This document shows positions 1-41,638 of a stretch of 41,673 nucleotides of DNA, in pieces; position 1 is the first letter of the stretch, and each line of letters opens with the position of its first letter. Source of the stretch: a virus (lineage: Duplodnaviria; Heunggongvirae; Uroviricota; Caudoviricetes). A model generated the notes under the pieces. It was not told the DNA's origin. It saw only the letters and a list, made by a program, of their open reading frames with translations, and ran no database searches. Position numbers and translations under genes: made by a program. The DNA is taken from positions 66,480-108,152 of IMG/VR virus record IMGVR_UViG_3300006145_000006. One strand, given 5' to 3'.

Positions 1-15
1 CGTTTTACGGTGTTA

Positions 16-693
16 TCACCAGCTCGATGTATAATACACAGCCTCGTTCACAAAGTCGGTTTCCTTAAGTACCTTCTCCAGAATTTCAATCGTCTGGTCA
101 ATATCCTCCATGTAGTAGCTGTCATACTCTGTGCTCCCGAAGAAGAAGCCACCTCGCGTCGGCAACAACTCCTCGCACACCTCTAGATTCGTAATTACAA
201 ATCCATCCACATAATCCCAATCACACTTGCCATCCTTTGTAAGCGTGTAACCATTTTTAACTTTCCCGGGCTTGAGTACGGCTTGCTCTTTAATCTGCTT
301 GCAGATACCAAGCAATTCCTCCAGGACACCCTCACTTACAATGTAGTACCCGCAGTCGTCAACACCGCCCTGTACATTCTCCACAAACCAAGAGTGGATC
401 TGATTGGCCTTGCGCCACGATGCCAAGTTCTGATGGATACACTTATAGCCATACTTCTGCTCGGTATCCCAAGATCCATAGCGATGTTTATAGCGGGGTC
501 GATAAAAATCCATCACATCTTGCTTAGGAAGTTCGCTGGGGTCATACCCTGACCAGCTCTTTAGATCGCTATCAAGATATTCACCATTTGCCTGCGTCTC
601 CTTAAGGCTAAAGTAGCTCTCCATAACAGAAATCTGATGCGGAGTCGTGTCCTTATACCGGGGATACTTGCTCAAATACATATCAAGTCCCAT
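16..693 (-). CDS. Conserved phage hypothetical protein (MGLDMYL...WRKANQIHSWF type)
   Basis: 225-aa ORF with RBS (AGAAAGGA). The N-terminal MGLDMYL and WRKANQIH motifs are typical of a widespread phage early-gene family. Confidence 0.8.
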   Translation of the reverse strand: MGLDMYLSKYPRYKDTTPHQISVMESYFSLKETQANGEYLDSDLKSWSGYDPSELPKQDVMDFYRPRYKHRYGSWDTEQKYGYKCIHQNLASWRKANQIHSWFVENVQGGVDDCGYYIVSEGVLEELLGICKQIKEQAVLKPGKVKNGYTLTKDGKCDWDYVDGFVITNLEVCEELLPTRGGFFFGSTEYDSYYMEDIDQTIEILEKVLKETDFVNEAVYYTSSW

Positions 694-730
694 GTCTCTT
701 TTCCTTTCTATTCACCATAAAAGTACAATT

Positions 731-1225
731 TTATGCCCAAAACCCAACTGTCCAATTTTGTAAGTATCCATTCTCATCAAAGTTACACATTGTTACATGC
801 CCGTTTTCAAACCTGCGAACAATCACATCCGAAGAATCAATTTCTCCCTGTGCGATATGAATACCAAACCAATTCACTATTGCCTCACTGTGAGTTTCAA
901 TCCAAAGATTCGCATTACGGGATCGCACTAGTTCGACCACACCTGCAATAACTTTTTTCTGAACTCTCGGATGCAAATCGTTTTCTGGGTGAATCAGCGC
1001 AATATCTAACCCCTCGCACTTCAGCATTTCATAGACTGACCATAGGATGGGAGCGCCAGAACCATTCCCACTCGGATATCCGCAACACCTTTCTACTAAA
1101 TCCAAAAACCCTTTGTCGCTTCGGTCCGGGGGCGAAGGGTTGCAGTACAAGCACCTAGGAATTGCACTGAGATATTTGCTCTTCCCTGATCCGTTTTCTC
1201 CAACCAAAATTTCAATCTTACTCAC
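731..1225 (-). CDS. Miniature ABC-type (AAA_15/AAA_21-like) ATPase with DUF3696-like C-terminus and degenerate Walker B
   Basis: Walker A GENGSGKS, D-loop-like PENDLHP, H-loop ETHS, C-terminal FDENGYLQNWTVGFW. Only 164 aa. Confidence 0.7.
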   Translation of the reverse strand: MSKIEILVGENGSGKSKYLSAIPRCLYCNPSPPDRSDKGFLDLVERCCGYPSGNGSGAPILWSVYEMLKCEGLDIALIHPENDLHPRVQKKVIAGVVELVRSRNANLWIETHSEAIVNWFGIHIAQGEIDSSDVIVRRFENGHVTMCNFDENGYLQNWTVGFWA

Positions 1226-1262
1226 AACATCACCTTCATTTTGGGCTCCAGAATTGATAAAA

Positions 1263-1517
1263 TCATCCTTTTATCTTCTTTAACAGTCTGATCAAAGACT
1301 CGAAGTCTGAATAGCTGTGCGGGTTAATTGGTTCTCCGTTCCACGCAGCGAAGAACACTCTCGCATCGTTTTCCGGTACAAATTCGCATTCTCCGTTCCA
1401 GTCCTCCAAAATATCCTGGATGTATTCCGCCACAATTACATAGATTTCACCATCTACATTCTCTGTGACAATTACAGTCCCATTCCCGTAGAAATTCACT
1501 GTCACGTCTTTGTTCAT
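1263..1517 (-). CDS. Hypothetical acidic protein
   Basis: 84-aa ORF with GAGGTGAGG RBS, co-oriented with neighbours. Confidence 0.75.
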   Translation of the reverse strand: MNKDVTVNFYGNGTVIVTENVDGEIYVIVAEYIQDILEDWNGECEFVPENDARVFFAAWNGEPINPHSYSDFESLIRLLKKIKG

Positions 1518-1534
1518 AGCCTCACCTCATAAAA

Positions 1535-1702
1535 TTACTGTTTTGTCTTGTCCGCAAACCGCTCATTTTCCCAACGTTCACACCAGCGTTGCTGGATAGA
1601 AACAAATTCAAGCCAGCTCCATTCGCCCCCAGCTTTAATGGGAACAATAGAAAACCGCTTAACAACACGGCTGTCACCATAATTAGGATCTCTCCATCGC
1701 AT
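1535..1702 (-). CDS. Small Trp-rich hypothetical protein (55 aa, not in ORF track)
   Basis: Hand translation MRWRDPNYGDSRVVKRFSIVPIK...; TAATG overlap with the upstream stop and a GGAGG RBS. Confidence 0.65.
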   Translation of the reverse strand: MRWRDPNYGDSRVVKRFSIVPIKAGGEWSWLEFVSIQQRWCERWENERFADKTKQ

Positions 1703-1896
1703 TATTGATTACCTCCCGCACTACACCAGAAGTCATCCGGCCCAAAGTGAACACCATCATAGTGTCGATAAATCACACCATCCGGAACATTGCTGGCGTC
1801 GGCCAGCTCCATATAGGACGGGTTCCCTACCATCTCAGTCACATACGCCTGCTTCAGCTCATCAATCTGGTCTCGGCTCAAATCTCGGACTGTCAC
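1702..1896 (-). CDS. Hypothetical protein
   Basis: 64-aa ORF with ATGA overlap to the upstream gene. Confidence 0.75.
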   Translation of the reverse strand: MTVRDLSRDQIDELKQAYVTEMVGNPSYMELADASNVPDGVIYRHYDGVHFGPDDFWCSAGGNQ

Positions 1897-2195
1897 TCGT
1901 CATCAGCCTCCAAATCCACCCACTTCTCAATCGCAGAATAGACGTCACTATCGTCCAACTGCGGAGCCCGCTCGTCAACCCACATCATCTCGTCCAGGAT
2001 GTCTTCTTTGGCCGCAATGATCTCGTTCCGCTTAGACTCATAAGGCTCTTCATCTTCGATATGTAAAAGTAAATCCTGCCACAGTTCTTCCCGTATCATC
2101 ATCGTCTTGAGTACACTGCTCTCGTTCGAGGTCAGACGGATAACCTCGCCGGTGTCCCGCTCGATGACCCACTCGCTGTCAAAATAGACCCCCAT
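1893..2195 (-). CDS. Acidic hypothetical protein, paralog of 2775..3095
   Basis: GGAGG RBS. Shares W..ERDTGE.I.LT.NE and RE.LW motifs with 2775..3095. Confidence 0.8.
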   Translation of the reverse strand: MGVYFDSEWVIERDTGEVIRLTSNESSVLKTMMIREELWQDLLLHIEDEEPYESKRNEIIAAKEDILDEMMWVDERAPQLDDSDVYSAIEKWVDLEADDE

Positions 2196-2228
2196 ATTTC
2201 CTCCAGTAGAACACCAAGGTTGTTAAAT

Positions 2229-2750
2229 TTATTCACCTGAAAACTCACTATAATATTTCTTCCTCATCTCTTTTGCGAAATTCTTGGGCTCATCCACATC
2301 ATCAAATGTTCCTAAGACGCTATTTACACCATTGATTTGCAGTTGAACACACCATTTTTCATTCATCCACGACACATTTCGGTAGCCAGACACCTAGTTC
2401 TTGTTGGGGCCAACTCGATTCATGCTGTTTTCTGACGGCTCAACGACCCTCAGATTTTCTTTTCTGTTATCCATCGTGTCATGGTTAATGTGGTCCACTA
2501 CCAAACCGCGTGGGGGCATCAACAACAAAACGACTAAGCATTAGACTTGTATATCGCTTCCTGCCAAAGTCATTCCGCCCATTGTCAATAAGCATAAATG
2601 GATACATAAACTGGTTGTTGCGATTACCTTTTACTTGAACCGCCTTCCCCAACTTTTGAAATCTTGGCAAGTCTTCTGTATCGATAAGAACTTCGTATCG
2701 TTTCTTACCTGCTATAATTGTTGTCGTGTCCCCATTAACAACGCATTCAT
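2229..2750 (-). pseudogene. Decayed HNH-AP2 homing endonuclease
   Basis: Joined frames give LIDTEDL...LVVDHINHDTMDNRKENLR...SGYRNVSW...WCVQLQING...LGTFDD. There is a frameshift near the start, a +1 frameshift at the G5 run 2512-2516, and an in-frame TAG at 2394-2396. Confidence 0.8.
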
Positions 2751-2774
2751 TAACAAATATGTCTGACTACCTCC

Positions 2775-3095
2775 TCAAGCCGAATGATATACATCCGGGC
2801 AAAACTTCTTGATGGCATCCCATACGATGTCGCCCATCACATCATCGGTGCGATGCTCTTGCTCCATCATGTAGTTCAGGATATTGTCCTTCTGCTTCTC
2901 GATGGCGGCAAACTCGGTGTCGGCGGCAGCATCGTTAGCGTCAATGTCCTCCAGTCGTAAGGAAACCCCTTCCCACAACTTTTCCCTCCGCATGAACCAG
3001 TAGATGTCCTGAATCTCATTGTAGGTCAGAGGAATCTTCTCCCCAGTATCCCGCTCGGCAATCCAAGACATAGGGCCATCACGATAGACAATCAT
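2775..3095 (-). CDS. Acidic hypothetical protein, paralog of 1893..2195
   Basis: 106-aa ORF with ATGA overlap; motif sharing as above. Confidence 0.8.
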   Translation of the reverse strand: MIVYRDGPMSWIAERDTGEKIPLTYNEIQDIYWFMRREKLWEGVSLRLEDIDANDAAADTEFAAIEKQKDNILNYMMEQEHRTDDVMGDIVWDAIKKFCPDVYHSA

Positions 3096-3532
3096 AGGTC
3101 CCCTCCAATTTCAAATCCAGTACCATCTGCAAAATCATCCAGTGCTTCGCTCAAATATTTTTTGTAGATATCATAGTGCTCTTTGCACCACACATGAGTA
3201 TCTATGTAGTTGTGATAGGTCTCCATATCGTCATCTGGGTTCAGCTTTTTCAGAGCAGTCAGCTCCTCCTGCCCAGCCTCATCCAAATCCTCATAGGCCT
3301 TATCGTTTTCAAGCTCCTCGATTCTATCACTTATAGCTTTCTTAATTTGCTCAAACCCATACTCGAAAACCAGCCTCATAACTCCATTTAGACCAACGGA
3401 AGTTACCCACTCTGCCCCATCGCAATATTCAAGAATGTCACAAAAGTCATATCCAACATCGTCAATTAACTTCAAATCTAATGAGCCGCAATTAAGAAGC
3501 TGCATCAGCAAGTCATCTTTTCCTCGAATCAT
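3092..3532 (-). CDS. Highly acidic hypothetical protein
   Basis: Start moved to ATG 3532 behind a GGAGGAG RBS. D/E-rich. Confidence 0.8.
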   Translation of the reverse strand: MIRGKDDLLMQLLNCGSLDLKLIDDVGYDFCDILEYCDGAEWVTSVGLNGVMRLVFEYGFEQIKKAISDRIEELENDKAYEDLDEAGQEELTALKKLNPDDDMETYHNYIDTHVWCKEHYDIYKKYLSEALDDFADGTGFEIGGDL

Positions 3533-3534
3533 AT

Positions 3535-3825
3535 TCAGTACTCCTCCGGAAGCAAAACTGTCGTTGTACTGCGGTCTTCCTCGGTGATGATCCAAATTTT
3601 GTCCTCCGGATCCAGTTCGCTCATGATGTACACACTAAACAGCCTGCCACCATCACTGAGCGCATTCTGATTGCTCTCCCAGTCCTCATCGCAAACATCG
3701 CCCCAGCTTCCTTCTCTGTGCATCTGGAGCGCTTTTTGCACAAGGAACGCATAGGTCGCACTGTCTGCGGCTCTGTCGGCAACACCACAAAGCATAACAA
3801 CCTGACCTATATCAAACAAGGCCAT
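3535..3825 (-). CDS. Conserved plasmid/phage protein (WGDV...WIITE.DRS.TTVLLPEEY family)
   Basis: The C-terminal motif is typical of a widespread family of unknown function on mobile elements. Confidence 0.75.
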   Translation of the reverse strand: MALFDIGQVVMLCGVADRAADSATYAFLVQKALQMHREGSWGDVCDEDWESNQNALSDGGRLFSVYIMSELDPEDKIWIITEEDRSTTTVLLPEEY

Positions 3826-3986
3826 TACTGTTCCTCCTCGTCGTCAAGATAACCTTCATCGCAAAGGTGCCCACGGAACCCATCGCTCAAGAGGCACGTT
3901 CCGTGCCAATCTAAGAAAAGGTTCGCTACAGTTTCACCGTCCAATCCACAGAGAATATCGTACATCTCAAGTTGCTTGCCGTTCAC
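3825..3986 (-). CDS. Small acidic hypothetical protein (53 aa, not in ORF track)
   Basis: Hand translation from GTG: MNGKQLEMYDILCGLDGETVANLFLDWHG...DDEEEQ. Fills the gap with overlaps at both ends. Confidence 0.65.
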   Translation of the reverse strand: MNGKQLEMYDILCGLDGETVANLFLDWHGTCLLSDGFRGHLCDEGYLDDEEEQ

Positions 3987-4621
3987 TGCTCGACCACCTC
4001 CACGACTGTATTATTCTTATCAACCCAGACGTGCTGCGTCCCAAGAACAGCAATGTGATAGCCCTTATTTTTCATTACCCTCTCATGCTCAGCAGCTTCA
4101 TCGTGCCACTGTAGGTCACGGGCCTTATAAAGCGGGATCCAGTGTGACTCATAGAAATCATACCCAGCACCATCGATGCCGAATATATAGCCGTAATCCT
4201 CTGACTCATAGACACGGAAGCCGCAGTCCGCCATCTTCTGGAGACCGTCCATTTTCTCAAGCCAATAATCATCACAAGAATCTCCGAATGTCCACATGGT
4301 TCCCCACATCGGAAGGCCGTCATCTCGTTGGACCTCAAAGTCGGATTTCTCCAGAACGATTTCATCGCCGGAGCCATCCAGCTCAATGCGATAACCATCT
4401 TCGTACTCGCCAACACCGCTTTCCACGATGTACCCATACTCACCGTCGCGAACCCCCTGAAGGACATAGACGTAGTCGTTCTCACCGGGAGGAGTGATTT
4501 CCACAATATCATTGTAGTCGCTTGCAATCATCAGTTTCTTAACAACAGACTGAGGGATACGATCAAAATCGCGCACCAGCTCCTTGGCAGCCTCACGTAC
4601 TGTCATTCCAGGTCGTTTCAT
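3983..4621 (-). CDS. Conserved phage hypothetical protein, acidic
   Basis: ORF with GGGAGA RBS; C-terminal GIDGAGYDFYESHW.PLY motif. Confidence 0.8.
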   Translation of the reverse strand: MKRPGMTVREAAKELVRDFDRIPQSVVKKLMIASDYNDIVEITPPGENDYVYVLQGVRDGEYGYIVESGVGEYEDGYRIELDGSGDEIVLEKSDFEVQRDDGLPMWGTMWTFGDSCDDYWLEKMDGLQKMADCGFRVYESEDYGYIFGIDGAGYDFYESHWIPLYKARDLQWHDEAAEHERVMKNKGYHIAVLGTQHVWVDKNNTVVEVVEQ

Positions 4622-4682
4622 ATTCAATTTCTCCCTTCTAAGTCGGCATCACCCGCCTATTCCCGATAAAATAACGTTTTTA

Positions 4683-5162
4683 TCAATAGGTGACGGTAAA
4701 CATGCCGTCCAGGTGCTTATGGCACATACTTTCATATGTAGATCCCGTCATACCTACATTAACGTCACACTGGACGACATGTTCGCCGTGTAGTGCATAA
4801 AAGTCATCAAAAATATCATCATCCAGGATCGCGTAGTTCTCAACGCCAGGATGTTCGTCAATCCACTTCTTGATCTCTGCTCCTCGATTAGACCCATGCA
4901 GAAGTGGAGTATGGCCCAGAATGTTAATTCCGTCACGCAGTCCTCCATTTCTAAGGCACTCTTGGTAGTTCTCCGCGGCTCGCCACGTGCTAGACACCAC
5001 AATGTCATAACCGTAATTCTGGCAAAACTCCGAAAGCCACTGAACTGCTTGAAAATTGTTGACGGAGCCGTCACGAGGAAAGTTAAAACGGCAACGTTTG
5101 CCATCTGGTGTCCACATTGCCGTGTTTACAACACCGTCGTAGTCAAGAAATACTACGTTCAT
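4683..5162 (-). CDS. HAD-superfamily phosphatase (HAD_SAK_2-like)
   Basis: Motif I FLDYDGV, motif II VVSSTWR, motif IV ILDDD. Confidence 0.85.
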   Translation of the reverse strand: MNVVFLDYDGVVNTAMWTPDGKRCRFNFPRDGSVNNFQAVQWLSEFCQNYGYDIVVSSTWRAAENYQECLRNGGLRDGINILGHTPLLHGSNRGAEIKKWIDEHPGVENYAILDDDIFDDFYALHGEHVVQCDVNVGMTGSTYESMCHKHLDGMFTVTY

Positions 5163-5197
5163 TATTTATCGCCATCCAATCTCATAAAAGAGTGCTT

Positions 5198-5761
5198 TTA
5201 TTGACCCTCGCAAACAATCTCATAGTCTCCGGACGAGACCTTCTTCCGCATATCTCTAATTGAGGAATACCACACAAATGTTTCCCCTGGCAATGTTATT
5301 TCGTACCCATTTTCAACCTTTTCGGCATGATAGATGGAACCTTTCACAAGCACATTTATGTGAGTTATAAAAGAAAATTTTTCTGGCAACATCGTCATTT
5401 CCTCACATAAATCGATTTTGCTTTGCTCCAAAAGCTCATCCGTAAAACCATTAACATATCCGTCATCGTCCCGCACCTGCACAAGAGCAAACATTGCACA
5501 GATTTTCTCCGCGGTGCTACTTGCCGTTTTCCCGTACTCCTTCAGTTCCCACAAAACAAAGCTCGGCTTCTTGACGCCGTCGATGTAGTCCGCAAGTGCA
5601 TCGTATAGGATTTCATCCAGCATTCGAGGCGTGTAGTTCTTCCACGGATAAGTACACTCTTTCCCCATGTACCGCTTAATGGAGTAAATCGGATCCCCCT
5701 TGTAGCCATATTTGTCGTTTCCCTTGCAGCACATGATGATGTTACAGGTTCGTTGCTCCAT
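5198..5761 (-). CDS. Hypothetical protein, possibly a two-part fusion
   Basis: ORF with GAGGTGA RBS. There is an internal GAGGAA-ATG and a degenerate palindrome copy at 5367-5384. Confidence 0.75.
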   Translation of the reverse strand: MEQRTCNIIMCCKGNDKYGYKGDPIYSIKRYMGKECTYPWKNYTPRMLDEILYDALADYIDGVKKPSFVLWELKEYGKTASSTAEKICAMFALVQVRDDDGYVNGFTDELLEQSKIDLCEEMTMLPEKFSFITHINVLVKGSIYHAEKVENGYEITLPGETFVWYSSIRDMRKKVSSGDYEIVCEGQ

Positions 5762-5796
5762 GTGATTCACCTCATGAAATAGTGGTTCTATCAGGA

Positions 5797-5966
5797 TCAG
5801 TTTCCAAAATAGTAGTGCAACCAGTCGCTCACAGCATCCATAACGCTCTTGCGGAGTTCGTTTGGATTATATCTATAATCGAAAAAATAGAGCCGTCATG
5901 GGGCTGGATTATAATCGTTCTTGTATCGGCATTAAGTTCTATAGAAAATTTGATTTTGTTGCCCAT
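5797..5966 (-). pseudogene. Small AT-rich ORF with a probable 1-nt deletion in a T6 run
   Basis: GGAGG-ATG at 5966 gives 45 aa. One extra T at 5882-5887 would give a 56-aa ORF ending YRYNPNELRKSVMDAVSDWLHYYFGN just before the next junction motif. Confidence 0.4.
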
Positions 5967-5985
5967 TTAGAATGACCTCCTATGG

Positions 5986-6294
5986 TCAATACTCTGTAGG
6001 ATCAGTCTCTGTCTCATCTGCCACATATACATCCAGACACACATAGTCAGTATCCGGAACGTCCGCCTTCTCAATAGCAAGAATCTTCTTTGCCAAGGTA
6101 CGAGACGGAATAAAAGTGCAATCCACATCAGGAATCATTGAGATTCCCATATCTCTGTCATCATGGACATTTACGTTATATTTCCCTGAGTCCATACGCA
6201 GCATATATACCAGCTCATTAACGGAAAGCTGAACACTCCGTTTAAACATCGGATGCTTGTCCAAAAGTTCGTTCATCTTATCTGTGAATTTCAT
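5986..6294 (-). CDS. Hypothetical protein
   Basis: 102-aa ORF with GGAGG RBS. Confidence 0.8.
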   Translation of the reverse strand: MKFTDKMNELLDKHPMFKRSVQLSVNELVYMLRMDSGKYNVNVHDDRDMGISMIPDVDCTFIPSRTLAKKILAIEKADVPDTDYVCLDVYVADETETDPTEY

Positions 6295-6314
6295 ACACTA
6301 ACCTCCTTCAGTGC

Positions 6315-6716
6315 TCAAAATGCCTGATGGTCAATGTCGTACACCATAGCAGAGACGCTGTCCATTTCAACGCGAACCCTACTCTCGCCACCACCGATCC
6401 AATGGACAATCACAAGCCTCCTGTCCGGCGTCAGCTCCATGCTCTCAACGCCCTTGCCCTCACCATGGGCACGGACATCCGGGTCAGCATAAAGCTCTCC
6501 ATACTCTCGGATAAACCGCTCAGCATAGGTTTCCTTACGGTAAACCTGTTCGCTGATTTTAGCGTAAGCACTATTGAACGCTCCAGCGTTTTCCCTCATA
6601 CTCTCCGCAAGTTCATCGTCGCTTTCGTACTTCTCCGCATAGACCTGATCGTCAATGGATAGTTCCAAAGCCTGCAACACAGTGAGCCACTCTTCTTTTG
6701 TCAGGTTGATTTTCAT
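6315..6716 (-). CDS. Hypothetical protein
   Basis: 133-aa ORF with GGAGGAG RBS. Confidence 0.8.
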   Translation of the reverse strand: MKINLTKEEWLTVLQALELSIDDQVYAEKYESDDELAESMRENAGAFNSAYAKISEQVYRKETYAERFIREYGELYADPDVRAHGEGKGVESMELTPDRRLVIVHWIGGGESRVRVEMDSVSAMVYDIDHQAF

Positions 6717-6731
6717 AGACGTTCTCCTCCA

Positions 6732-6884
6732 TTACACAATTTCAACTCTGGCTCCCCAGGCATCGTATGTATCAAGGTTGTTGCAGGCCCAGCTCAACGC
6801 CTCCCCATAGCTCAGGAATGGGCGGGTTATCCGGCGGATTTCATAATGGCTTTCATTCACAAAGACAATAGTGTACCTATTCAA
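6732..6884 (-). CDS. Small hypothetical protein (50 aa, TTG start, not in ORF track)
   Basis: GGGGAGG RBS; MNRYTIVFVNESHYEIRRITRPFLSYGEALSWA... Confidence 0.6.
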   Translation of the reverse strand: MNRYTIVFVNESHYEIRRITRPFLSYGEALSWACNNLDTYDAWGARVEIV

Positions 6885-7209
6885 CGGAGTTTACCTCCCC
6901 GGTGATCATCATCGAAAAAATATCGCGCAATTCACTTTTTGCGTGCCTTTCGCACGCTTTGAGCGTCTGCACCATTTCTCTATTGGTTGCATTGCGGGAA
7001 ACCGCTTTTCGATATTCCGCGGCATAGCCAGAACTGGAATCAAAAGAAAAGCACCCAGACTTTTCATAAAGAAAGTCAAAGAGTTCCTCCACCCTGGCGC
7101 ACTTCCAAGGGTGTTGGTTCTTGTGTGTAACCGTCCAGTCAAATTCCTTGACAGCCTTGATACACTCGTCAATCGCCTTGTAGCTGTATGTGGCTATGCC
7201 GGCTGACAT
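6877..7209 (-). CDS. Hypothetical protein
   Basis: Start moved to ATG 7209 (MSAGIATY) behind a GGAGG RBS. Confidence 0.75.
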   Translation of the reverse strand: MSAGIATYSYKAIDECIKAVKEFDWTVTHKNQHPWKCARVEELFDFLYEKSGCFSFDSSSGYAAEYRKAVSRNATNREMVQTLKACERHAKSELRDIFSMMITGEVNSVE

Positions 7210-7361
7210 ACAAACTGCCCCTCCTTCTGCCAATACTCCTCTCGGTAGCGGCGCATGGCCTCCTTCTTGGTGTAGTCGTAATACTGTTTCACCCCAAGGA
7301 GGCCATACACCACCCAGGCACCGTGGACGTTCTTCTCAACGAAATAGATACAGGACTTCAT
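7194..7361 (-). CDS. Small hypothetical protein (55 aa, not in ORF track)
   Basis: AAAGGAG RBS; MKSCIYFVEKNVHGAWVVYGLLGVKQYYDYTKKEAMRRY... Confidence 0.7.
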   Translation of the reverse strand: MKSCIYFVEKNVHGAWVVYGLLGVKQYYDYTKKEAMRRYREEYWQKEGQFVCQPA

Positions 7362-7391
7362 TCCGTCTCTCCTTTCAATGAAACCGCAGTT

Positions 7392-8318
7392 TTATCTGGT
7401 CTTTGTGGGATATGTATAATGGGAAGTCACAACTAGTTTGGCCTCGCCTTCCTCATAATCCCCGCCTTCAATGGCCTCTGTAAGGCCCGCAATCGAGCCC
7501 GCAATGCCGTTAGCAAAAATGTCAGAACCGTAAAAGCCCCAGCATGAATCAACTTCCTCCCAGGTGCTGTCATCATCCTCGGCCTCTGTATCGGCTTTCT
7601 TGAGGAGAGTGAACCCATACACATCGCCGGTGAGATACTGGTCGTATTCTTTAACCTCGGCCTCCATAAGCCGGGTTGCACACTCCCTCCAGTCGTTCTC
7701 ACTGTAGCCGATTTCTTTGATGACATTATCCTTCGTGGTATAAATCCATCCAACCTGCCCACTATCCCAACAGTCAGCAAATTGACCTCTCCTCACTCCA
7801 CAGGACATCGTGATACCGCTATGATCATATAGCCAGAGCGGGAGCCATATCGCATAGGGCTCCATCAATGTCATACAATGCCCGATAGTCAAATCGTCCA
7901 GCAGGTAGTACACGGCGGTGTCTTCGCTAACCTCTTCATACTCCAGGCATTCCTCCGGCTCCCCATCTCCGATAGGGCTTCTCCACTGACAGATTTCGTA
8001 GATGTTTACCAGATTGTCATGCCCCTCGCATTTTTCGATACGGATACCGGTGAGCTTCCCAGCTTTCGCCGCAACCATAACCTCGCTTTCAGGCACATTC
8101 TCTCGGACGAGTCTTTGCCAAAATTCCTCCGGGGTATCATCCCCAACGTCATCACCGAGCCGATAATGTCGATGCCAACACGCCATATAGGTTCCTGTGT
8201 GATCCCAGTCAGTCCTTGGATTCATCGGGTCATCGTCATGTTGAACATGGAGGCAAAACTGGCCGCCCTCATGCTCGAACTTCACGGTGTCATTGTCGTA
8301 CATTCTGAACTCCATCAC
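7392..8318 (-). CDS. Conserved acidic phage early protein (YDHSG...WDSGQVG...DSCWGFYG family)
   Basis: 308 aa, strongly acidic, with recognisable family motifs. Function unknown. Confidence 0.8.
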   Translation of the reverse strand: MMEFRMYDNDTVKFEHEGGQFCLHVQHDDDPMNPRTDWDHTGTYMACWHRHYRLGDDVGDDTPEEFWQRLVRENVPESEVMVAAKAGKLTGIRIEKCEGHDNLVNIYEICQWRSPIGDGEPEECLEYEEVSEDTAVYYLLDDLTIGHCMTLMEPYAIWLPLWLYDHSGITMSCGVRRGQFADCWDSGQVGWIYTTKDNVIKEIGYSENDWRECATRLMEAEVKEYDQYLTGDVYGFTLLKKADTEAEDDDSTWEEVDSCWGFYGSDIFANGIAGSIAGLTEAIEGGDYEEGEAKLVVTSHYTYPTKTR

Positions 8319-8356
8319 AGCTTCCCCTTCTTATGAAATGACCGTTTTATGTAGTT

Positions 8357-8833
8357 TTATATGTCTCCAAAATAAACAGACAAAGGGATACTCAAAATTT
8401 CTTGCTCGTGTTGATTGAGTATCAGGCAGCACAACTTGTATGCCTCCTTATCTGCTCCAACCTCGCTATTATCTTCCCTCTGCTTGATTGCCATATAGTG
8501 TCCCAGTTCATGGGCCAACACCCAAGGATCATTTTCAAGCTTCTCCAAGATTTCAATTTTGGCATCGTCAAGAATCAGACGTCCAGCTCTGGAGTGATAC
8601 AGAATCCTCCCGGCCGCATCTCCAAGCACCTTGTGATATGACACCTCAATGCCGAGCTGAGAACACAGAACCTTAAGAGAGCTGGTCAACCTTGTCTCGG
8701 TTTCTGCCCTCTCCTTGCCCCGTTCCTTCATTTCTTTATCGACCTTCCAGTTGATAATGAGAATCGACACAACCATAGCGATAAGAAAACTCACGAACCC
8801 GGCAAAGAGTATCAAAATCACTTCCCTTTCCAT
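8357..8833 (-). CDS. Membrane-anchored HExxH zinc metallopeptidase (ImmA/IrrE, Peptidase_M78-like)
   Basis: N-terminal hydrophobic helix; VLAHELGH motif and a downstream E..AD..A motif. Confidence 0.7.
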   Translation of the reverse strand: MEREVILILFAGFVSFLIAMVVSILIINWKVDKEMKERGKERAETETRLTSSLKVLCSQLGIEVSYHKVLGDAAGRILYHSRAGRLILDDAKIEILEKLENDPWVLAHELGHYMAIKQREDNSEVGADKEAYKLCCLILNQHEQEILSIPLSVYFGDI

Positions 8834-8858
8834 ATTTTCACCCCATAAAATGTCTGTT

Positions 8859-9149
8859 TTACTTGCTCTCGAAAACTTTCATAGCATCAATGTGCGCCTT
8901 GGCCTCGGACAAAGTGCATCCAGTCTGCTCACGATACAGAACGCAGGCATTCACGGTATTGCCGGCGGCAACCAGTTCCTGGACGGTCGGATGACACTCA
9001 ATCGCCCTTCCACTAACAGACAACCCCCGCAAAAACTCGGAGTAAAGCTCAGGAGCTTTGTCACACTCGATCCCCGTCGTGATCTGAAATGCCATAAGAA
9101 CATAGTTGCCCCTGACGATGTCACCGTTAGAAAGTTTGTAAAATTCCAT
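8859..9149 (-). CDS. Protein with a ribosomal L7/L12 C-terminal-like motif
   Basis: ELVAAGNTVNACVLYREQTGCTLSEAKAHIDAM fits the L..G..i.Aik.yRe.tg.gL.EAK..vd pattern. Confidence 0.6.
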   Translation of the reverse strand: MEFYKLSNGDIVRGNYVLMAFQITTGIECDKAPELYSEFLRGLSVSGRAIECHPTVQELVAAGNTVNACVLYREQTGCTLSEAKAHIDAMKVFESK

Positions 9150-9190
9150 AAAGCTCCCTCCAAAGTTGATAGAATCGCGGTTTACCTGGC

Positions 9191-9385
9191 TTACTTGCGC
9201 TCGTACTTAGTCCCCGTCCAGTCAAAAGCCCGGATAATATACCCGGAAATGCACTGGAGAATTTCATCATCGTTCTCTCGGATAAACCGATCCATGTCCA
9301 CCGTCTTATGGTCGTGCTCAAAATCCTCGATGAAGCGCATAACTTCCTCCAGCGTAATGTCGCTACGCTTGCAGGCGGACACCAC
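9191..9385 (-). CDS. Hypothetical protein
   Basis: 64-aa ORF in the operon. Confidence 0.65.
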   Translation of the reverse strand: MVSACKRSDITLEEVMRFIEDFEHDHKTVDMDRFIRENDDEILQCISGYIIRAFDWTGTKYERK

Positions 9386-9617
9386 CCCGCCTGGTAGGCC
9401 GTGGGCGCTTATACGGGCTACATCCTTTGACTCGCCAATTTAGTCGTTTTGCGTTTGACATTAGGCCGTTGGGGTTTGCCTTCTTGACTTGCTCGGCCTG
9501 GCTCTTGGTCTGCTCGCTATAGTTGGCATATTTCTGACAATCACTATGGCATCTATGTACGCCAGTACTATCTGTCCTGACATATCGATCCGCGCAGCCA
9601 TTACATGGACAGTTCAT
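9363..9617 (-). CDS. Small Cys-rich phage protein (CPCxGC..R..CHS.C.KY type)
   Basis: MNCPCNGCADR...CHSDCQKY. Confidence 0.75.
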   Translation of the reverse strand: MNCPCNGCADRYVRTDSTGVHRCHSDCQKYANYSEQTKSQAEQVKKANPNGLMSNAKRLNWRVKGCSPYKRPRPTRRGGVRLQA

Positions 9618-9619
9618 TA

Positions 9620-9910
9620 TCAGCACCGCCCATCTGCCCGGAGCAACGAGACGGCAAACCTGGCCTGCTCCATTGGGCAGTTGTTATTCTTGGCATAGAG
9701 CACAGCAGCATCTTCGTGCATTCCGTTTGCACACAACTCGCTCACCGTGCTGAACGGCATTTTTTCAAGACCTCCCAGCTCCGCCGCCAGTTTTGCCCGA
9801 TACTGCTTGGAACTCAATCCCGGGTTCTTTTGCTTGGCAATCAAAAATCCCCGGAGATTTAGCTCTCTGTCAGTGTAGATTTTGCCATTACCACTCTTGT
9901 AGAGACACAT
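9620..9910 (-). CDS. Paralog of 8859..9149 with a divergent L7/L12-CTD-like motif
   Basis: Start at ATG 9910 behind AAAGGGGG. Shares the YK..NG.I N-terminus and TV.EL.A.G....A.VLY.....C....A C-terminus. Confidence 0.7.
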   Translation of the reverse strand: MCLYKSGNGKIYTDRELNLRGFLIAKQKNPGLSSKQYRAKLAAELGGLEKMPFSTVSELCANGMHEDAAVLYAKNNNCPMEQARFAVSLLRADGRC

Positions 9911-9944
9911 GTGTCTCGCCCCCTTTATTTTGTTTTGCGTATTG

Positions 9945-9973
9945 ATAATACCATACGCAAATATTAAAGTCAA
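9945..9973 (-). promoter_or_regulatory. sigmaA-type internal promoter with an overlapping inverted repeat
   Basis: TTGACT-17-TATTAT on the minus strand. TTTGCGTAT/ATACGCAAA arms flank the -10. Confidence 0.7.
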
Positions 9974-10137
9974 TAGGAATTTTCATTCTCTTGCATCATG
10001 GGTAATGTATCGATCCAGTCATTGAGCCATTTCCAATGAGGGAAAATAAGATCGGACACAAGACCCAGGATGCCGAAGCCGAAGAAGATAACCCCTCCGG
10101 CTCCGGCAACAAAGATGATTCGCTCTAGCGCACTCAT
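9970..10137 (-). CDS. Small membrane protein (55 aa, not in ORF track)
   Basis: MSALERIIFVAGAGGVIFFGFGILGLVSDLIFPHWKW...; one predicted TM helix; overlaps the upstream stop. Confidence 0.7.
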   Translation of the reverse strand: MSALERIIFVAGAGGVIFFGFGILGLVSDLIFPHWKWLNDWIDTLPMMQENENSY

Positions 10138-11123
10138 CACGCCTTTACCATGGTAGGCATGAAGTTATCTTCGGCCACATTGTTATAGGGCATCTTGACA
10201 TCATCCTTAGAGGCTCCACCGCCGGTTACCTTTTTGCGCTCCGGCAAAATGCTTTCCCAATATTTGGTCACAGCCTGCAAATCCCCCTTCGCGTGAGGGA
10301 ATTTGTCGATGGCCTTTGCCTTAATCTGTCGCGGCTCAGTGCCCTGGTTGGCCTTTACAATCTCCCTGCTCACAACCCCAAGGCGGTCTGTGTTGCTGAG
10401 ATAGATATTCCTCAGCGCCTTGATGATGGTCTGATTATAGGCACGGTCAGAGCTATGCCATCCGCTATCCTGGATAACCTTCAAAATCCAGTACAAGGCA
10501 TCCGGCCCGTTCTTTTTGCAAATTTGATAAGCAGATTTGAGGGCAGACAGCCGAGCCGCCCCCTCCTCATTGCCAGGCTTGCACAATACGCGCTGCGGCA
10601 GAGACTCGCATACCCGCAGGATCTCAAAGACCACGGAATCCGCATCCTCCCCACGCTGAACAAGGGCGGCCTTAAAGTCGTCAAAGGCGCTCATCCTCTT
10701 CCTCGGGGCGTTATTCTGCTTGCGGTACTGAGTGGCCTCGTCGGAGAGAGATTTTCCTACATAGATGCGGCAGGGGAGGTCTGTGATCCCAGCCTTCTTG
10801 GCACCCTCTACCCGATGCCACCCATCTGTCACCCAGAACCATCCATCCCGATAAGAGACACTGATGGTTTCACACAAACCCCAGTTCCAATTGGCAGCGA
10901 TATCATTGATAAGAGCCTCATCTGCCGGCAATGTATGATCGCGCTGGTAACCATCCTCCCCATCCTCCACGGCCATGAACGCAATAGGCAAGTCTGCTTC
11001 TAAGATCCCATGGTGCTTTTCTGCGTTTTTTACGAGTAGGTCGCAGGCAGTGCGGCGGACAGCGTCAATGTCTTGGGCGATGGTGACGGGTTCTTTGTTC
11101 TCCTTGTTGTTGAACAGCTTCAT
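10137..11123 (-). CDS. ParB/Srx-like domain protein (DUF6551-like)
   Basis: VSYRDGWFWVTDGWHRV motif (DGxHR) followed by a helical region; 328 aa. Confidence 0.7.
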   Translation of the reverse strand: MKLFNNKENKEPVTIAQDIDAVRRTACDLLVKNAEKHHGILEADLPIAFMAVEDGEDGYQRDHTLPADEALINDIAANWNWGLCETISVSYRDGWFWVTDGWHRVEGAKKAGITDLPCRIYVGKSLSDEATQYRKQNNAPRKRMSAFDDFKAALVQRGEDADSVVFEILRVCESLPQRVLCKPGNEEGAARLSALKSAYQICKKNGPDALYWILKVIQDSGWHSSDRAYNQTIIKALRNIYLSNTDRLGVVSREIVKANQGTEPRQIKAKAIDKFPHAKGDLQAVTKYWESILPERKKVTGGGASKDDVKMPYNNVAEDNFMPTMVKA

Positions 11124-11167
11124 GATTTGTTATCTCCCTTCAAAAATGTGGTTTGGTTATGTAATAA

Positions 11168-11275
11168 TCAGGTCAATCGGTCGTACTTCTCCTCGAAGAA
11201 GTTGTATATGCGGTGGTCCATCTTCTCGCACCACGCAAACAGGTGCATGAGCATGAGGTAAATTTCCTTTCTCAT
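11168..11275 (-). CDS. Small hypothetical protein (35 aa, not in ORF track)
   Basis: GGAGG RBS; MRKEIYLMLMHLFAWCEKMDHRIYNFFEEKYDRLT; ATGA overlap. Confidence 0.6.
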   Translation of the reverse strand: MRKEIYLMLMHLFAWCEKMDHRIYNFFEEKYDRLT

Positions 11276-11622
11276 TGGCATTCCTCCTTTTCGGTGCCAA
11301 CACCCATACAGGAGCTGGCAAGATTGTCAATGTGCGCAGGGTGGATCTCGGACGGCTGGTACACGCCAATAGAATCCAGCTCCTTCGGCTTGGCAACACC
11401 ATCTACACTGGAAGCCCACGACCGTGCCGCAGCACTCACCCGCCCATCCCAGTTGCCAACGGTGTTGACCAGCTCCGCCACGGCCAAGATTGCCTCACGG
11501 TGACCAATCATGCCCCCCAGGATTGAGACGGTTTCCTCCGGCGTGTTATTGCCCTCAAACCGGCTCTTTGTGTACGCCTCCACAAGAGCTTTTTGCCGTG
11601 CCTTGACTGTCTTTTTGTCCAT
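11272..11622 (-). CDS. Hypothetical protein
   Basis: Start moved to ATG 11622 behind GGGAGGAG. Confidence 0.8.
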   Translation of the reverse strand: MDKKTVKARQKALVEAYTKSRFEGNNTPEETVSILGGMIGHREAILAVAELVNTVGNWDGRVSAAARSWASSVDGVAKPKELDSIGVYQPSEIHPAHIDNLASSCMGVGTEKEECQ

Positions 11623-11654
11623 AATGTACTCCTCCCTTTTTGAATTTTGGGCAC

Positions 11655-11690
11655 AAAAATAGACCGCCAAGGCTTACACCTCAGCGGTCT
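11655..11690 (-). terminator. Intrinsic terminator directly upstream of the 11622 gene
   Basis: On the minus strand, AGACCGCTGAGG-TGTAAG-CCTTGGCGGTCT followed by ATTTTT. Confidence 0.7.
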
Positions 11691-11759
11691 GATAAAATTG
11701 ATGTTTTATAAGGTTTGGGGAGGGGCCTATCGCTTGACCCCTCCCCGGCGGGTTTCCCA

Positions 11760-11788
11760 TTGACACATCCCAAAATTCGCCTTATAAT
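11760..11788 (+). promoter_or_regulatory. Consensus sigmaA promoter for the toxin-like peptide
   Basis: TTGACA-17-TATAAT, an exact match. Confidence 0.85.
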
Positions 11789-11876
11789 GACTCTGCGGTT
11801 AACACCTCCCGTACATCAGCAAATACCCTTTACATAGGTCACAGATTCCATGTGACCACGAAAGGAGGTGTCGCCC

Positions 11877-11969
11877 ATAGAGTTCGTCCTACTTAACATT
11901 GCGGCCAGCTTGGTCGCTAATGCGATTTGGGATGGTCTCCGGGCCATGTGGCGTGCTGTAGCACGCTAA
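11877..11969 (+). CDS. Type I toxin-like hydrophobic peptide (30 aa, ATA start)
   Basis: AAAGGAGGTG RBS, then (M)EFVLLNIAASLVANAIWDGLRAMWRAVAR. It has its own promoter, an upstream anti-SD and a downstream hairpin. Confidence 0.65.
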   Translation: MEFVLLNIAASLVANAIWDGLRAMWRAVAR

Positions 11970-11976
11970 TCGCACG

Positions 11977-12003
11977 GAGGCGGGGCGATGAGCGTCCCGC
12001 CTC
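11977..12003 (+). terminator. Hairpin after the toxin-like ORF
   Basis: GAGGCGGGGCG-ATGAG-CGTCCCGCCTC followed by TCGTTT. Confidence 0.6.
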
Positions 12004-12045
12004 TCGTTTCGTCCTCCCGGCTCCTGCACCTGCGGAGGGCGATAT

Positions 12046-12080
12046 AAAACCGCCCAAGGCCGATGGTCTTGGGCGGTTTG
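12046..12080. terminator. Bidirectional terminator downstream of the AAA ATPase gene
   Basis: AAACCGCCCAAG...CTTGGGCGGTTT inverted repeat. Confidence 0.75.
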
Positions 12081-12096
12081 TTGGATGGTATTTGTA

Positions 12097-13269: not shown

Positions 13270-13344
13270 TGGCTTGCCTCCTTTATATGAATTTATTTGT
13301 AGATATATGCTTTTTTTCGCCTTACGATGCCGTGATTTGTTTTT

Positions 13345-13372
13345 AGTATACCATACAGAGCGACATTGTCAA
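13345..13372 (-). promoter_or_regulatory. Promoter of the AAA ATPase moron
   Basis: TTGACA-16-TATACT with a TG extension. Confidence 0.7.
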
Positions 13373-13375
13373 GAG

Positions 13376-13410
13376 CAAAAGAGCCGCCTGGGCGGGCGGC
13401 TCTTGTCGTT
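13376..13410 (-). terminator. Intrinsic terminator
   Basis: AAGAGCCGCC...GGCGGCTCTT stem followed by TTTT on the minus strand. Confidence 0.7.
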
Positions 13411-13442
13411 TCCTCTGGTTTGTGGTAGGATTGGGGTGGAGG

Positions 13443-13471
13443 TTGAAATCCTCTGGTAGTTGTGGTAGAAT
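13443..13471 (+). promoter_or_regulatory. Promoter of the GHKL moron
   Basis: TTGAAA-17-TAGAAT with a TG extension. Confidence 0.7.
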
Positions 13472-13519
13472 GTGGTCGATTATATCTTGCTCCATAAGTC
13501 AAATTTTGGAGGTCTTACA

Positions 13520-26018: not shown

Positions 26019-26052
26019 CGAATTTCAATAGCATAGTCAGGAGGTGGTTGTA

Positions 26053-27042
26053 GTGGCACAGAAAAGTCCTTTAATTCGGTTTTATGATGAGGATAAGCTA
26101 AAAAAGATCAACCCGGAGACAATGAAGTTCTGGCAAAAGTACCGCATCGATATGGAACTGCGAGACTTGAGCGAGAAAACGATTGCCGGATACTACAACG
26201 ACCTCCAGCACTGGTGGATCTTCGTCTATGACAATCAGGGCAATCAGTGCGTAACAGATTTGACTGAGGACGACTTGACTGAATTTCTGTATTTTTGCAA
26301 AACTCAGGGCAACAATTCCCGCAGGATGAAGCGGAGGATGTCCTCCATCTCGGCCTTTTATAAGTTCTTGCGAAAGAAGAAGCTCATCAGCGAGAATCCC
26401 ATGGAGTTCATAGATCGCCCAAAGAAGGATGTGGACGTGCTGGTGCAGACTTACCTCACGCCGGAGCAGGTTGGTCAGATGCGTGAGGCACTGTCTTCCA
26501 ATATTGACACGGCCACTACCGACCGGGCTAAGAATGCCGCACTCACTTTACGGGTCTATGCCCTGTTTTCCCTGTCTACGATGGCTCGGGTAACGGCCAT
26601 TAGCAACACCCGATGGGAACAAATCGACCTTGACGAACGAACGGTCAATGAAGTGATTGAGAAAGAGGGCTATATTGTAGACCTTGGGTTCTCCGAGGAG
26701 GTCTCGGGTCTGCTATCCGAGCTGAGACGGTTCCGGCAGGAGCACAACATTGATGATGGTGGGTTCGTGTTCTATTCAGACCACGGAAGTCAAATTGACG
26801 CCATCGATACCGGTTCTCTAAACGAGTGGTGTAAAAAGATTGGGCGCATGATTGATGTTCCCACCCTCCATCCACACGATTTTCGGCACAGCGGGGCAAC
26901 CTTGCTTAAAAACGCTGGCATGAGTCTTGAGGATGTTAGTGCTTTGTTAAACCATGCAGGGACAGATGTTACTAAGAAGTACTACATCAAAGAGGATAAG
27001 AGCAAACTCAAGAAGGCAAAAGACCAGTTTGAAACCTTCTAA
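26053..27042 (+). CDS. Tyrosine recombinase (XerC/D-like) with intact catalytic residues
   Basis: SAM-like N-domain (SS.SAFYKFL), R in MARV, HDFRH, LNH and the C-terminal Y (TKKYY). GTG start behind AGGAGG. Confidence 0.9.
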   Translation: MAQKSPLIRFYDEDKLKKINPETMKFWQKYRIDMELRDLSEKTIAGYYNDLQHWWIFVYDNQGNQCVTDLTEDDLTEFLYFCKTQGNNSRRMKRRMSSISAFYKFLRKKKLISENPMEFIDRPKKDVDVLVQTYLTPEQVGQMREALSSNIDTATTDRAKNAALTLRVYALFSLSTMARVTAISNTRWEQIDLDERTVNEVIEKEGYIVDLGFSEEVSGLLSELRRFRQEHNIDDGGFVFYSDHGSQIDAIDTGSLNEWCKKIGRMIDVPTLHPHDFRHSGATLLKNAGMSLEDVSALLNHAGTDVTKKYYIKEDKSKLKKAKDQFETF

Positions 27043-27047
27043 GCCTG

Positions 27048-27065
27048 ATAAAACCTATATTTTAT
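27048..27065. repeat. Exact ATAAAA-N6-TTTTAT copy directly after the tyrosine recombinase stop
   Basis: ATAAAA CCTATA TTTTAT. Further right-arm copies lie at 39925 (ATGAAA TCAAAA TTCTAT) and 41610 (GTAAAA CCGCTC TTTTAT). Confidence 0.85.
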
Positions 27066-27153
27066 GGTCCTGCCAAGTCGAAGGCTTGCGTTCCTACGCG
27101 GGGTATTGATGTAGGCTTGGTGGGATTATTTTATATTGCCTGGGGGTGAGCTG

Positions 27154-41604: not shown

Positions 41605-41638
41605 AGACGGTAAAACCGCTCTTTTATCAGGTTAACAG

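Follow-up and report, generated by a model that had tools for sequence, protein, structure and literature searches.

The stretch of DNA analysed here, called the window below, comprises the final 41,673 nt of a 108,152-nt viral contig (IMGVR_UViG_3300006145_000006) whose ends overlap by 78 nt; the whole genome is referred to as G0. G0 is an SPbeta-like temperate phage of an anaerobe. Genome positions 25-78 kb are occupied by minus-strand genes, which make up the early/accessory arm, and the remainder by the plus-strand late arm; in the window, every gene between 16 and 11670 is on the minus strand. Megablast of both window halves against a phage collection gave no match. The element of interest is a short gapped palindrome, ATAAAA-N6-TTTTAT, found repeatedly between the genes of the early arm. 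A first-pass annotation, made from the window sequence alone, had listed 11 copies and a half-site at the window edge and had compared the array to an integron. All 11 copies were recovered, five of them exact, five with one mismatch and one (at 5774) with two; ten lie at gene junctions, the exception being the copy at 5367, which falls inside an open reading frame (ORF).

Near relatives of G0 were taken from Logan assemblies via exact-protein look-ups, and the counterparts of individual copies in relatives are given here with the copies; spacers are written in the direction of transcription. The left end of the window cuts a copy at genome 66470-66487, leaving its right half (TTTTAC) at window positions 1..8; the half-site first seen at 2-7 is the right arm of this copy. 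Its alleles in the relatives L216 and L218 share the spacer cgatgg, and L218 diverges exactly at its right edge. An exact copy at 717..734 (spacer ttgtac, the same in the relative LOG37) lies between a 164-aa ATPase gene and a 225-aa gene, and the TAA in its arm is the stop codon of ORF 731-1225. Another exact copy, at 1257..1274 (ggatga), separates the 84-aa ORF from the ATPase gene, and a copy with one mismatch (ACAAAA cagtaa TTTTAT, 1529..1546) is found 11 nt upstream of the ATG of the 84-aa ORF. Exact copies lie on both sides of a gene with a HAD_SAK_2 match: downstream at 4666..4683 (acgtta) and upstream at 5184..5201 (gcactc), where the arm TAA is the stop of ORF 5198-5770. The intragenic match at 5367..5384 has one mismatch, and the homologous LOG37 sequence carries no motif there; this match is probably fortuitous and outside the motif family. 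The copy at 5774..5791 (ATAGAA ccacta TTTCAT) has two mismatches. A 307-aa gene has one-mismatch copies downstream, at 7378..7395 (ctgcgg), and upstream, at 8333..8350 (cggtca). They are followed by a one-mismatch copy at 8845..8862 (GTAAAA cagaca TTTTAT) and by a decayed one at 9169..9185 (GTAAA-ccgcga-TTCTAT, with a 1-nt deletion), for which L216 has an intact allele, GTAAAA ccgcga TTTTAT. As had been reported, the arm TAA is the upstream stop codon at 731, 5198, 7392 and 8859, and each of five single genes (mini-ATPase, 84-aa ORF, HAD protein, a 308-aa ORF and an HExxH peptidase, in the wording of that annotation) is bounded by two copies.

The early arm is headed by an exact copy at 11692..11709 (catcaa), flanked on one side by a GC-rich hairpin and on the other by a strong intrinsic terminator on the minus strand (11690-11661). 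The terminator follows the copy directly, so that beyond it the long early operon shows no promoter that is obviously its own. On the plus strand, a perfect TTGACA-17-TATAAT promoter (11760-11788) points away from the early arm. Sigma-70-like promoters in window 1-13500 number 20, against 20.1 in shuffled sequence, which is chance level, and the description of the cassettes as promoterless and co-oriented stands. Outside the early arm the window has two further copies: an exact one at 27048..27065, 6 bp past the stop codon of a Xer-like recombinase gene, and one with one mismatch at 41610..41627, which lies past the final gene of the plus strand and ahead of a terminator hairpin, within the 78-nt contig-end overlap.

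In total, the window contains six exact copies and 12 with at most one mismatch, where dinucleotide shuffles give 0.00 and 0.12; the exact copies are thus far above chance, as the first-pass annotation had estimated. The whole 108-kb genome has about 35 copies (16 exact and about 19 with one mismatch), most of them in the early arm, and no other gapped palindrome is enriched in it. The full unit is a 28-bp dyad, ACCCAATAAAA-N6-TTTTATTGGGT, with 11-6-11 geometry; within the consensus arm ACCCAATAAAA the inner six bases are the most strongly conserved. Position counts show that the flanks in G0 mirror each other, with ACC(C/A) at -5 to -2 and GGT at +20 to +22. In AT-rich relatives the complete form ACCCA-ATAAAA-N6-TTTTAT-TGGGT is evident. 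The TGGGT flank is not merely a Shine-Dalgarno (SD) sequence, because in these relatives a separate ribosome-binding site lies further downstream, beyond the flank. At the ends of the spacer the first base is rarely A (2/35) and the last never T (0/35). This bias, taken at first for a polarity of the spacer, is symmetric; it merely fixes the A and T runs at four bases. The spacers of the roughly 35 copies in G0 all differ from one another.

Nearly all copies stand in the short gap that separates a stop codon from the following ribosome-binding site. Read in the direction of transcription, 27 of 35 have the stop codon of an ORF of at least 40 codons between -30 and +6 of the motif, and in 14 of these 27 the TAA lies inside the left arm. 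An SD sequence and start codon follow within 60 nt in 27/35, and 20-27/35 stand between a stop codon and an SD. Across eight genomes with coding densities of 78-91%, 70-90% of copies are intergenic. Some copies are found between a terminator and the next promoter, for example at SPbeta 99497 and window 11692.

The spacers, which differ from site to site within G0, are constant at a given site between relatives. Over a 33-kb stretch shared by G0 and LOG37, 29 syntenic copies show 0/174 spacer differences and 12/348 arm differences. Copies were paired by spacer for this count, and the pairing left no syntenic copy with a changed spacer apart from the intragenic match at 5367. At least ten of the 29 have one or both flanks replaced. 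In two, at 8845 and 5774, both flanks and both arms have been replaced, leaving shared patches of 11-13 bp. The LOG37 allele of the first is ATAAAA cagaca TTTCAT, its flanks are unrelated to those in G0, and AAAA-cagaca-TTT alone is held in common; the allele of the second is GTAAAA ccacta TTTTAT, and AA-ccacta-TTT is all that is shared. The suggestion that the sites tolerate heterology in the spacer is contradicted by these comparisons: allelic spacers are identical, and exchange follows spacer identity.

Homology between G0 and its near relatives frequently ends at the copies. Sharp homology ends, taken at 90% identity or more and away from contig ends, number 24; for 13-14 of them a copy, in G0 or in the relative, is no further off than about 12 nt. 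Homology begins at the first base of the copies at 8333 (with L218) and genome 62041. It stops after the TTT of the right arm at 7378 and genome 59002 and within the left arm at genome 59350; at genome 66470, genome 64483 and window 9169 it reaches the right edge or runs a few bases past it, the distance at the decayed copy (9169) being 3 nt. At 7378, G0, L216 and L218 are identical through ctgcgg TTT and then continue into three different downstream sequences. Between the copies, defined slots on the minus strand hold different genes in different phages. In G0 the slot between ccgcga and cagaca (8863..9168) is filled by a 96-aa gene, whereas L216 and L218 have a 125-aa DUF551 gene there. That between cagaca and cggtca (8351..8844) has a 158-aa gene here, a 101-aa and a 158-aa gene in L216 and the 101-aa gene alone in L218. 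The slot between ctgcgg and ccacta (5792..7377) has five small genes here, one 42-aa gene in L216, L217 and L212, and one 94-aa gene in L218. The cassette idea stands to this extent; its integron-like form does not. The expectation that breakpoints in relatives would fall at the sites is likewise borne out for a large share of them, and several indels avoid the sites.

The same element is present in the SPbeta group, where homology ends were also counted. SPbeta, phi3T, SPR and SPbetaL2 were compared using megablast blocks no shorter than 400 bp and no less than 85% identical. Of the block ends, 7-13% lie within 15 bp of a copy centre, as against about 0.9% of random positions. The ends cluster at the edges of the motif, left ends at offsets 0-2 and right ends at 15-20, and 45 of the 86 ends in a 58-nt window occupy 9 of its 58 positions. 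For example, SPbeta and phi3T have in common a 3213-bp block (99.97% identity) whose first base is also that of one copy and whose end falls in the right arm of a second; on both sides the DNA outside it is unrelated. In seven natural phages SPbeta homology stops exactly at 116431, the last base of a copy. Gene junctions with a motif carry a homology end in 72/125 cases, and those without in 143/605, an odds ratio of 4.4. When gap length is controlled for, the ratio is about 3 (logistic coefficient for the motif 1.06), and the effect holds in most gap-length strata.

Spacers are also shared between genomes of this group far more often than composition would predict. Copies with no more than one mismatch yield 149 same-spacer matches from genome to genome, as against 5.4 after the spacer letters are shuffled. 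When the 60-nt flanks of these pairs are compared, both are homologous in 65, one in 54 and neither in 30; the spacer AGACTG is found in four phages in four unrelated contexts. In the pairs with one homologous flank, the arms differ at 34/390 positions on the replaced side and at 3/390 on the homologous side (pooled p = 7e-8), or, counted as unique events, at 15/36 and 3/34. Because arm variants travel with the replaced flank, the joint must fall within the motif, on the stretch that separates the variable arm positions from the spacer. Spacers of copies that align through on both sides show lower divergence, although this is suggestive only. Random illegitimate joining followed by selection was considered as the main source of the joints and is ruled out by the in-motif joints and the shared spacers.

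Outside the near relatives of G0 the element has a wide but uneven distribution. A complete 141-kb relative (G003) has 22 matches, with 0 in its reversed control, and five IMG/VR contigs of 26-32% GC (G006-G010) have 4-17 exact copies each, with up to 11 exact copies in 17 kb. Motif and control counts are 38 and 4 in SPbeta, 33 and 7 in phi3T, and 48 and 8 in Perkons; SPR and SPbetaL2 have 12 and 16 exact copies, with a control of 0. In SPbeta the copies are mainly in the early region and mostly inside operons, and those of the yopV-yorE region are located at annotated gene junctions. A scan of viral contigs with an exact 23-nt pattern returned mostly lone chance matches and is informative only for the few contigs with several. 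The nearest genome by terminase (G001, 77% aa identity) has no copy and no other enriched dyad, and a co-varying pair of site and protein is ruled out for it, since this motif-less phage has no substitute dyad. No description of the motif was found in the SPbeta literature consulted (an SPbeta review, the MrpR paper, the SPbeta-relatives paper and the Perkons paper). The SPbeta record NC_001884 annotates at least one copy, that at 116406-116431, merely as a 'stem_loop'; its 'palindrome' misc_features at 77856-77871 and 82394-82411, which flank the yopM-R lysogeny operon, are not copies of the motif. One copy, with spacer tgataa, is present at SPbeta 99497 and phi3T 89339 in opposite orientation and could mark the edge of an inverted segment.

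Several candidates for a protein that binds the element were examined and set aside. Tables of genes shared by motif-bearing and motif-less genomes, compiled by tblastn, yielded no candidate binder. A 220-aa protein that G0 shares with G003, G006 and G007 was identified as a DNA methyltransferase, and an HU-like protein of the YonN type is found in G001 and CB473P1, which lack the motif, but not in G003, which has it.

From the comparisons of homology ends, arms and spacers in two lineages, the copies appear to be position-specific crossover points at which whole genes are swapped in register between copies with the same spacer. We consider it probable that the element is a protein-binding DNA dyad serving as such a crossover point. 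In the mechanism that we prefer, a dimeric protein would bind the 11-6-11 dyad; a dimeric binder is the most likely one because this geometry is that of a Xer/dif-type tyrosine-recombinase core site. Two phages would then recombine in register inside the motif, between same-spacer copies, in an exchange that would swap whole genes or gene blocks and leave them undamaged. The exchange itself would be conservative and site-specific, carried out across the spacer by a phage tyrosine recombinase. Differing spacers would make the sites mutually incompatible, as in heterospecific lox sites, and the genome would therefore not delete itself. The explanation as a whole, that is, position-specific crossover sites together with the tyrosine-recombinase mechanism, is given a probability of roughly 0.45. 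The enzymatic step, site-specific exchange by a phage tyrosine recombinase, is somewhat less secure than this and stands below even odds.

The candidate enzyme in G0 is the 332-aa Xer-type tyrosine recombinase encoded on the plus strand at 26044..27042, which has a Pfam Phage_integrase match of 68 bits, a SAM_1 match and a PHROG integrase assignment. Aligned with XerC-like proteins and XerA, it has the box I Arg, PHDFRHS (HxxR), LLNHAG and KKYY in place, and judged by this alignment its catalytic motifs appear intact. The gene belongs to the late operon, about 14 kb from the palindrome array and on the opposite strand; the exact copy at 27048 directly adjoins it and is its one link to the sites. 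It has been reported that SPbeta-like phages carry extra, unexplained tyrosine recombinases (PMC13245101). If the proposed mechanism is correct, whole genes would be swapped between co-resident phages and prophages solely where the two sites have one address in common. Nature would then have its own version of recombinase-mediated cassette exchange with heterospecific lox sites, and the extra recombinases would be accounted for. A natural 'addressable cassette-exchange' system of this kind, with a phage tyrosine recombinase serving dozens of dif-like sites that have their arms in common but individual 6-bp overlaps, is put forward as a tentative proposal.

A number of observations weigh against this explanation. 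Some concern the role of the motif as an exchange point. Most homology ends in the SPbeta group lie away from copies, about 12-25% being at them. The four genomes of that group are related, which inflates the pooled p-values, and when the SPbeta set is reduced to independent allelic groups the conservation of the spacer is not significant (7/9 as against 4.9 expected). In laboratory hybrids of phi3Ts and SPbeta, 15/16 junctions fall within long homology of the ordinary kind (10.1101/2020.05.06.055103); the one junction described as non-homologous, 'following yosA', was not found in the deposited hybrids, which are 100% SPbeta at that place. In the G0 lineage, indels avoid the copies at window 9371, 3107-3534, 1838-2766 and 7276/5404. 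A whole 146-aa gene (window 3092-3532) and a stretch of about 930 nt (1838-2766) are present in G0 and absent from four near relatives, and their end points are overlapping stop and start codons or ORF interiors, not copies. Such end points off the copies indicate a second, motif-independent indel process in the same arm.

Other observations concern the enzyme. A copy beside a recombinase gene is seen in G0 only. In SPbeta, where both the motif and the breakpoint pattern recur, the nearest counterpart of the window recombinase, YopP, has HSFK where HxxR is expected, with Lys in place of the second catalytic Arg, and its expression in the lysogen alongside the repressor suits a regulator. Phage_integrase matches are present in all genomes, including motif-less G001 and CB473P1, so that co-occurrence is uninformative. 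Finally, an identity patch of 11-18 bp could serve short-homology recombination, for which the phage codes SSB and a Sak-type annealing protein, and recombination of this type predicts the same pattern of spacers and arms as site-specific exchange does. The two genes lie side by side on the minus strand outside the window, at genome 52643-53743, and form a recombination module able to use short homologies; they are located upstream of the primase-helicase and DnaE genes.

The strongest alternative is that the sites are primarily operators or roadblocks, through which a dimeric phage regulator silences in the lysogen early operons that are long and largely without promoters. A recombinase-fold protein no longer capable of catalysis, for example SPbeta YopP, a sister of MrpR, could be this regulator, and the sites would then be arranged much like the stoperators of mycobacteriophage L5. 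Exchange would be a by-product, in which the conserved patch of 14-18 bp, as the sole homology between otherwise unrelated junctions, is used by the annealing protein or by the host. The Lys that replaces catalytic Arg II in YopP fits this account, as do the conservation of its gene in the SPbeta group and its transcription in the lysogen with yopQ and yopR, and MrpR provides a precedent for a recombinase-fold repressor with dispersed sites (PMC10516654). The concentration of copies in the early arm fits it too, and the SSB and Sak-type single-strand annealing protein supply the means for the by-product. Moreover, a few copies are suitably placed: in G006 one lies over the spacer of a perfect TTGACA-17-TATAAT promoter, with a second about 20 nt downstream, and in G0 a copy with two mismatches overlaps a -35 at genome 58236. 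However, most copies are far from any promoter, and nearly all of them would have to block elongation; there are also copies that come after terminators and before promoters (SPbeta 99497, window 11692). ChAP-seq of MrpR found only ten SPBRE sites, of a different sequence (PMC10516654). In addition, patches of 11-13 bp are poor substrates for general recombination, yet junctions with the motif are exchange points two to three times more often than others. We regard operators as a possible primary function, though one that is less likely than not.

A function at the RNA level, as an AU-rich intercistronic hairpin for processing, translational repression, or SD masking and translational coupling, would account for the placement of 20-27/35 copies between stop codon and SD; the outer arms ACC and GGT could pair with the SD region, and one SPbeta copy has been labelled a stem_loop. 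The arms themselves argue otherwise. In Perkons, arm position 3 and its partner 4' are A-T in 12 copies, A-C in ten, G-T in eight and G-C in eight, and on the sense strand there are 16 G.U and 21 A.C combinations. There is thus no covariation, A.C being as frequent as the G.U that an RNA stem would accept, and TTTGAT and TTTCAT right arms are found opposite left arms that keep ATAAAA. Not all copies belong to a transcription unit, in AT-rich relatives the TGGGT flank and the SD are distinct, and an Rfam search found no family at the palindrome copies. Because paired arm positions vary independently and some copies are outside transcription units, the element appears to act in the form of duplex DNA, its two half-sites, RTRAAA, each being read independently; an RNA hairpin we find very unlikely. 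That the element is a promoter, or part of one, for the YonO-type or a phage-modified host polymerase, giving each cassette its own start, is hardly credible: the phage does code for a YonO homologue, but the element is symmetric and not directional, several copies lie 1-11 nt from an SD or start codon and would yield transcripts without a ribosome-binding site, and in SPbeta transcription by YonO is confined to the late operon and has a single start, upstream of yonK (PMC5467207), whereas copies are mostly early.

The YonO homologue is a single-chain RNA polymerase of 936 aa encoded on the plus strand at 20474-23284 and 43% identical to SPbeta YonO over 93% of its length. It has FDCDGD instead of the universal DFDGD-type metal site, and its gene is followed by an HNH endonuclease gene (23697-24824), at which place SPbeta has none. 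Directly after the copy at 27048 lies a DUF3800-VIII RNA (Rfam, 67 bits, plus strand, 27064-27129), whose SPbeta counterpart is at 59409-59474 (minus strand, 47.5 bits). In both phages this RNA is found at the head of the late operon, and it may be a leader of YonO-dependent late transcripts or a marker of the YonO promoter region. G0 also codes for a DnaE-type polymerase, NrdD, ThyX and a dNMP kinase, in addition to the SSB and Sak-type proteins. Its tyrosine-recombinase-like proteins are three: a classical 388-aa integrase, the Xer-like protein of the window, and a 349-aa protein with a weak, partial Phage_integrase match (27.7 bits). The gene for the last (genome 60168-61620, minus strand, outside the window) adjoins a MazF/PemK toxin gene, and the pair is kept in G001, G003 and the Logan relatives. 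Sequence searches found no relative of the 349-aa protein in the PDB. One possible identity for it is a degenerate regulator with a recombinase fold, similar in kind to MrpR and tied to a toxin, which would echo the arbitrium-MazEF connection of SPbeta.

The origin of mosaic phage genomes made of intact genes is an old open question, to which the classic answers have been random illegitimate joining with selection, or conserved 'linker' sequences. In a family that contains SPbeta, a defined element of 18-28 bp here marks gene joints to the base, and since SPbeta is a tractable genetic model in Bacillus subtilis the question is directly testable. Should an enzyme be responsible, this would be a new use of a tyrosine recombinase and would provide a ready set of mutually incompatible sites for genome engineering. 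Should none be, the element would exemplify clearly how one family of regulatory sites also guides modular evolution.

Among known systems, the integron was the comparison made by the first-pass annotation. Integron attC sites are 57-141 bp long, with R''-L''/L'-R' boxes and a GTTRRRY core; they vary in sequence, and it is their folded single strands that are recognised. An integron further comprises attI, the Pc promoter and a neighbouring intI gene, and it works by inserting and excising circles. The arrays share with them promoterless, co-oriented single genes bounded by imperfect palindromes over stop codons, and a tyrosine recombinase in the genome. However, the palindrome unit is 18-28 bp, is conserved in sequence and lacks the GTTRRRY core, and its exchange is allelic and governed by spacer identity. 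No attI or Pc partner was found; the head of the early arm holds the hairpin, a copy and the terminator. To our knowledge, the address-like spacer has no described natural counterpart.

Dispersed repressor sites offer a second comparison. The stoperators of Cluster A mycobacteriophages, bound in L5 by gp71, are 13-bp, asymmetric, orientation-dependent sites with a known repressor, and P1 C1 and phiC31 also have dispersed operators. Like stoperators, the palindromes are present in tens of short copies in the small intergenic gaps of a temperate phage, often over stop codons. They differ in being dyad-symmetric in both core and flanks, in having a free spacer and in being linked to exchange points. 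Nearer at hand is SPBRE, a dispersed site of the same phage family bound by the tyrosine-recombinase-fold protein MrpR/YopR (PMC10516654). The shared sequence ...ACAAATAATATGTATATAAT of SPBRE overlaps the -10 of PyorE, PyopV and PyonP, and SPBRE has about ten copies, all at promoters, whereas SPbeta has 38 palindromes, mostly within operons. The yorE, yopV and yonP promoter regions have ...AATATGTATATA(AT) in common, not the palindrome. The possibility that the palindrome is SPBRE, the 15-bp MrpR operator, is excluded by this difference in sequence.

The closest structural parallel is with Xer/dif sites. XerH/difH, XerS/difSL and archaeal XerA/dif all have 11-bp inverted arms around a 6-bp centre, and A and T runs abut this centre, as seen in the arms of difH (AGTTATGAAAA / AAAAGTTTGA) and difSL (TTTCCGAAAA / TTTTCTTGAAA) (PMC5357621). 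In single-recombinase Xer systems the site lies beside the recombinase gene, as it does in G0 (PMC5357621). Strand exchange at such sites takes place at the borders of the central region and needs that region to be identical in both partners; the spacer and arm comparisons would fit this, as they would short-homology recombination. There are distinct differences: about 35 copies per genome, each with its own spacer, stand against a single dif, the arm sequence differs from that of the host dif, and the nearest recombinase homologue in SPbeta lacks Arg II. In their effect on the genome the palindromes resemble instead the PeSL elements (promoter-early stem-loops) of T4-type phages, which are likewise repeated intergenic elements in variable regions of small genes and coincide with the end points of indels and replacements between close relatives (PMC2839356, PMC4122927). 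PeSLs, however, are units of a sigma-70 promoter and a terminator that recombine with one another to give deletions and mini-circles. The palindrome is an 18-28-bp dyad with no promoter consensus at most copies, its 6-bp AT stem with a 6-nt loop is no terminator, and its site-specific spacer confines exchange to the same map position. The element functions most like the PeSLs, in shuffling at repeated intergenic units, and looks most like sites of the dif/lox type.

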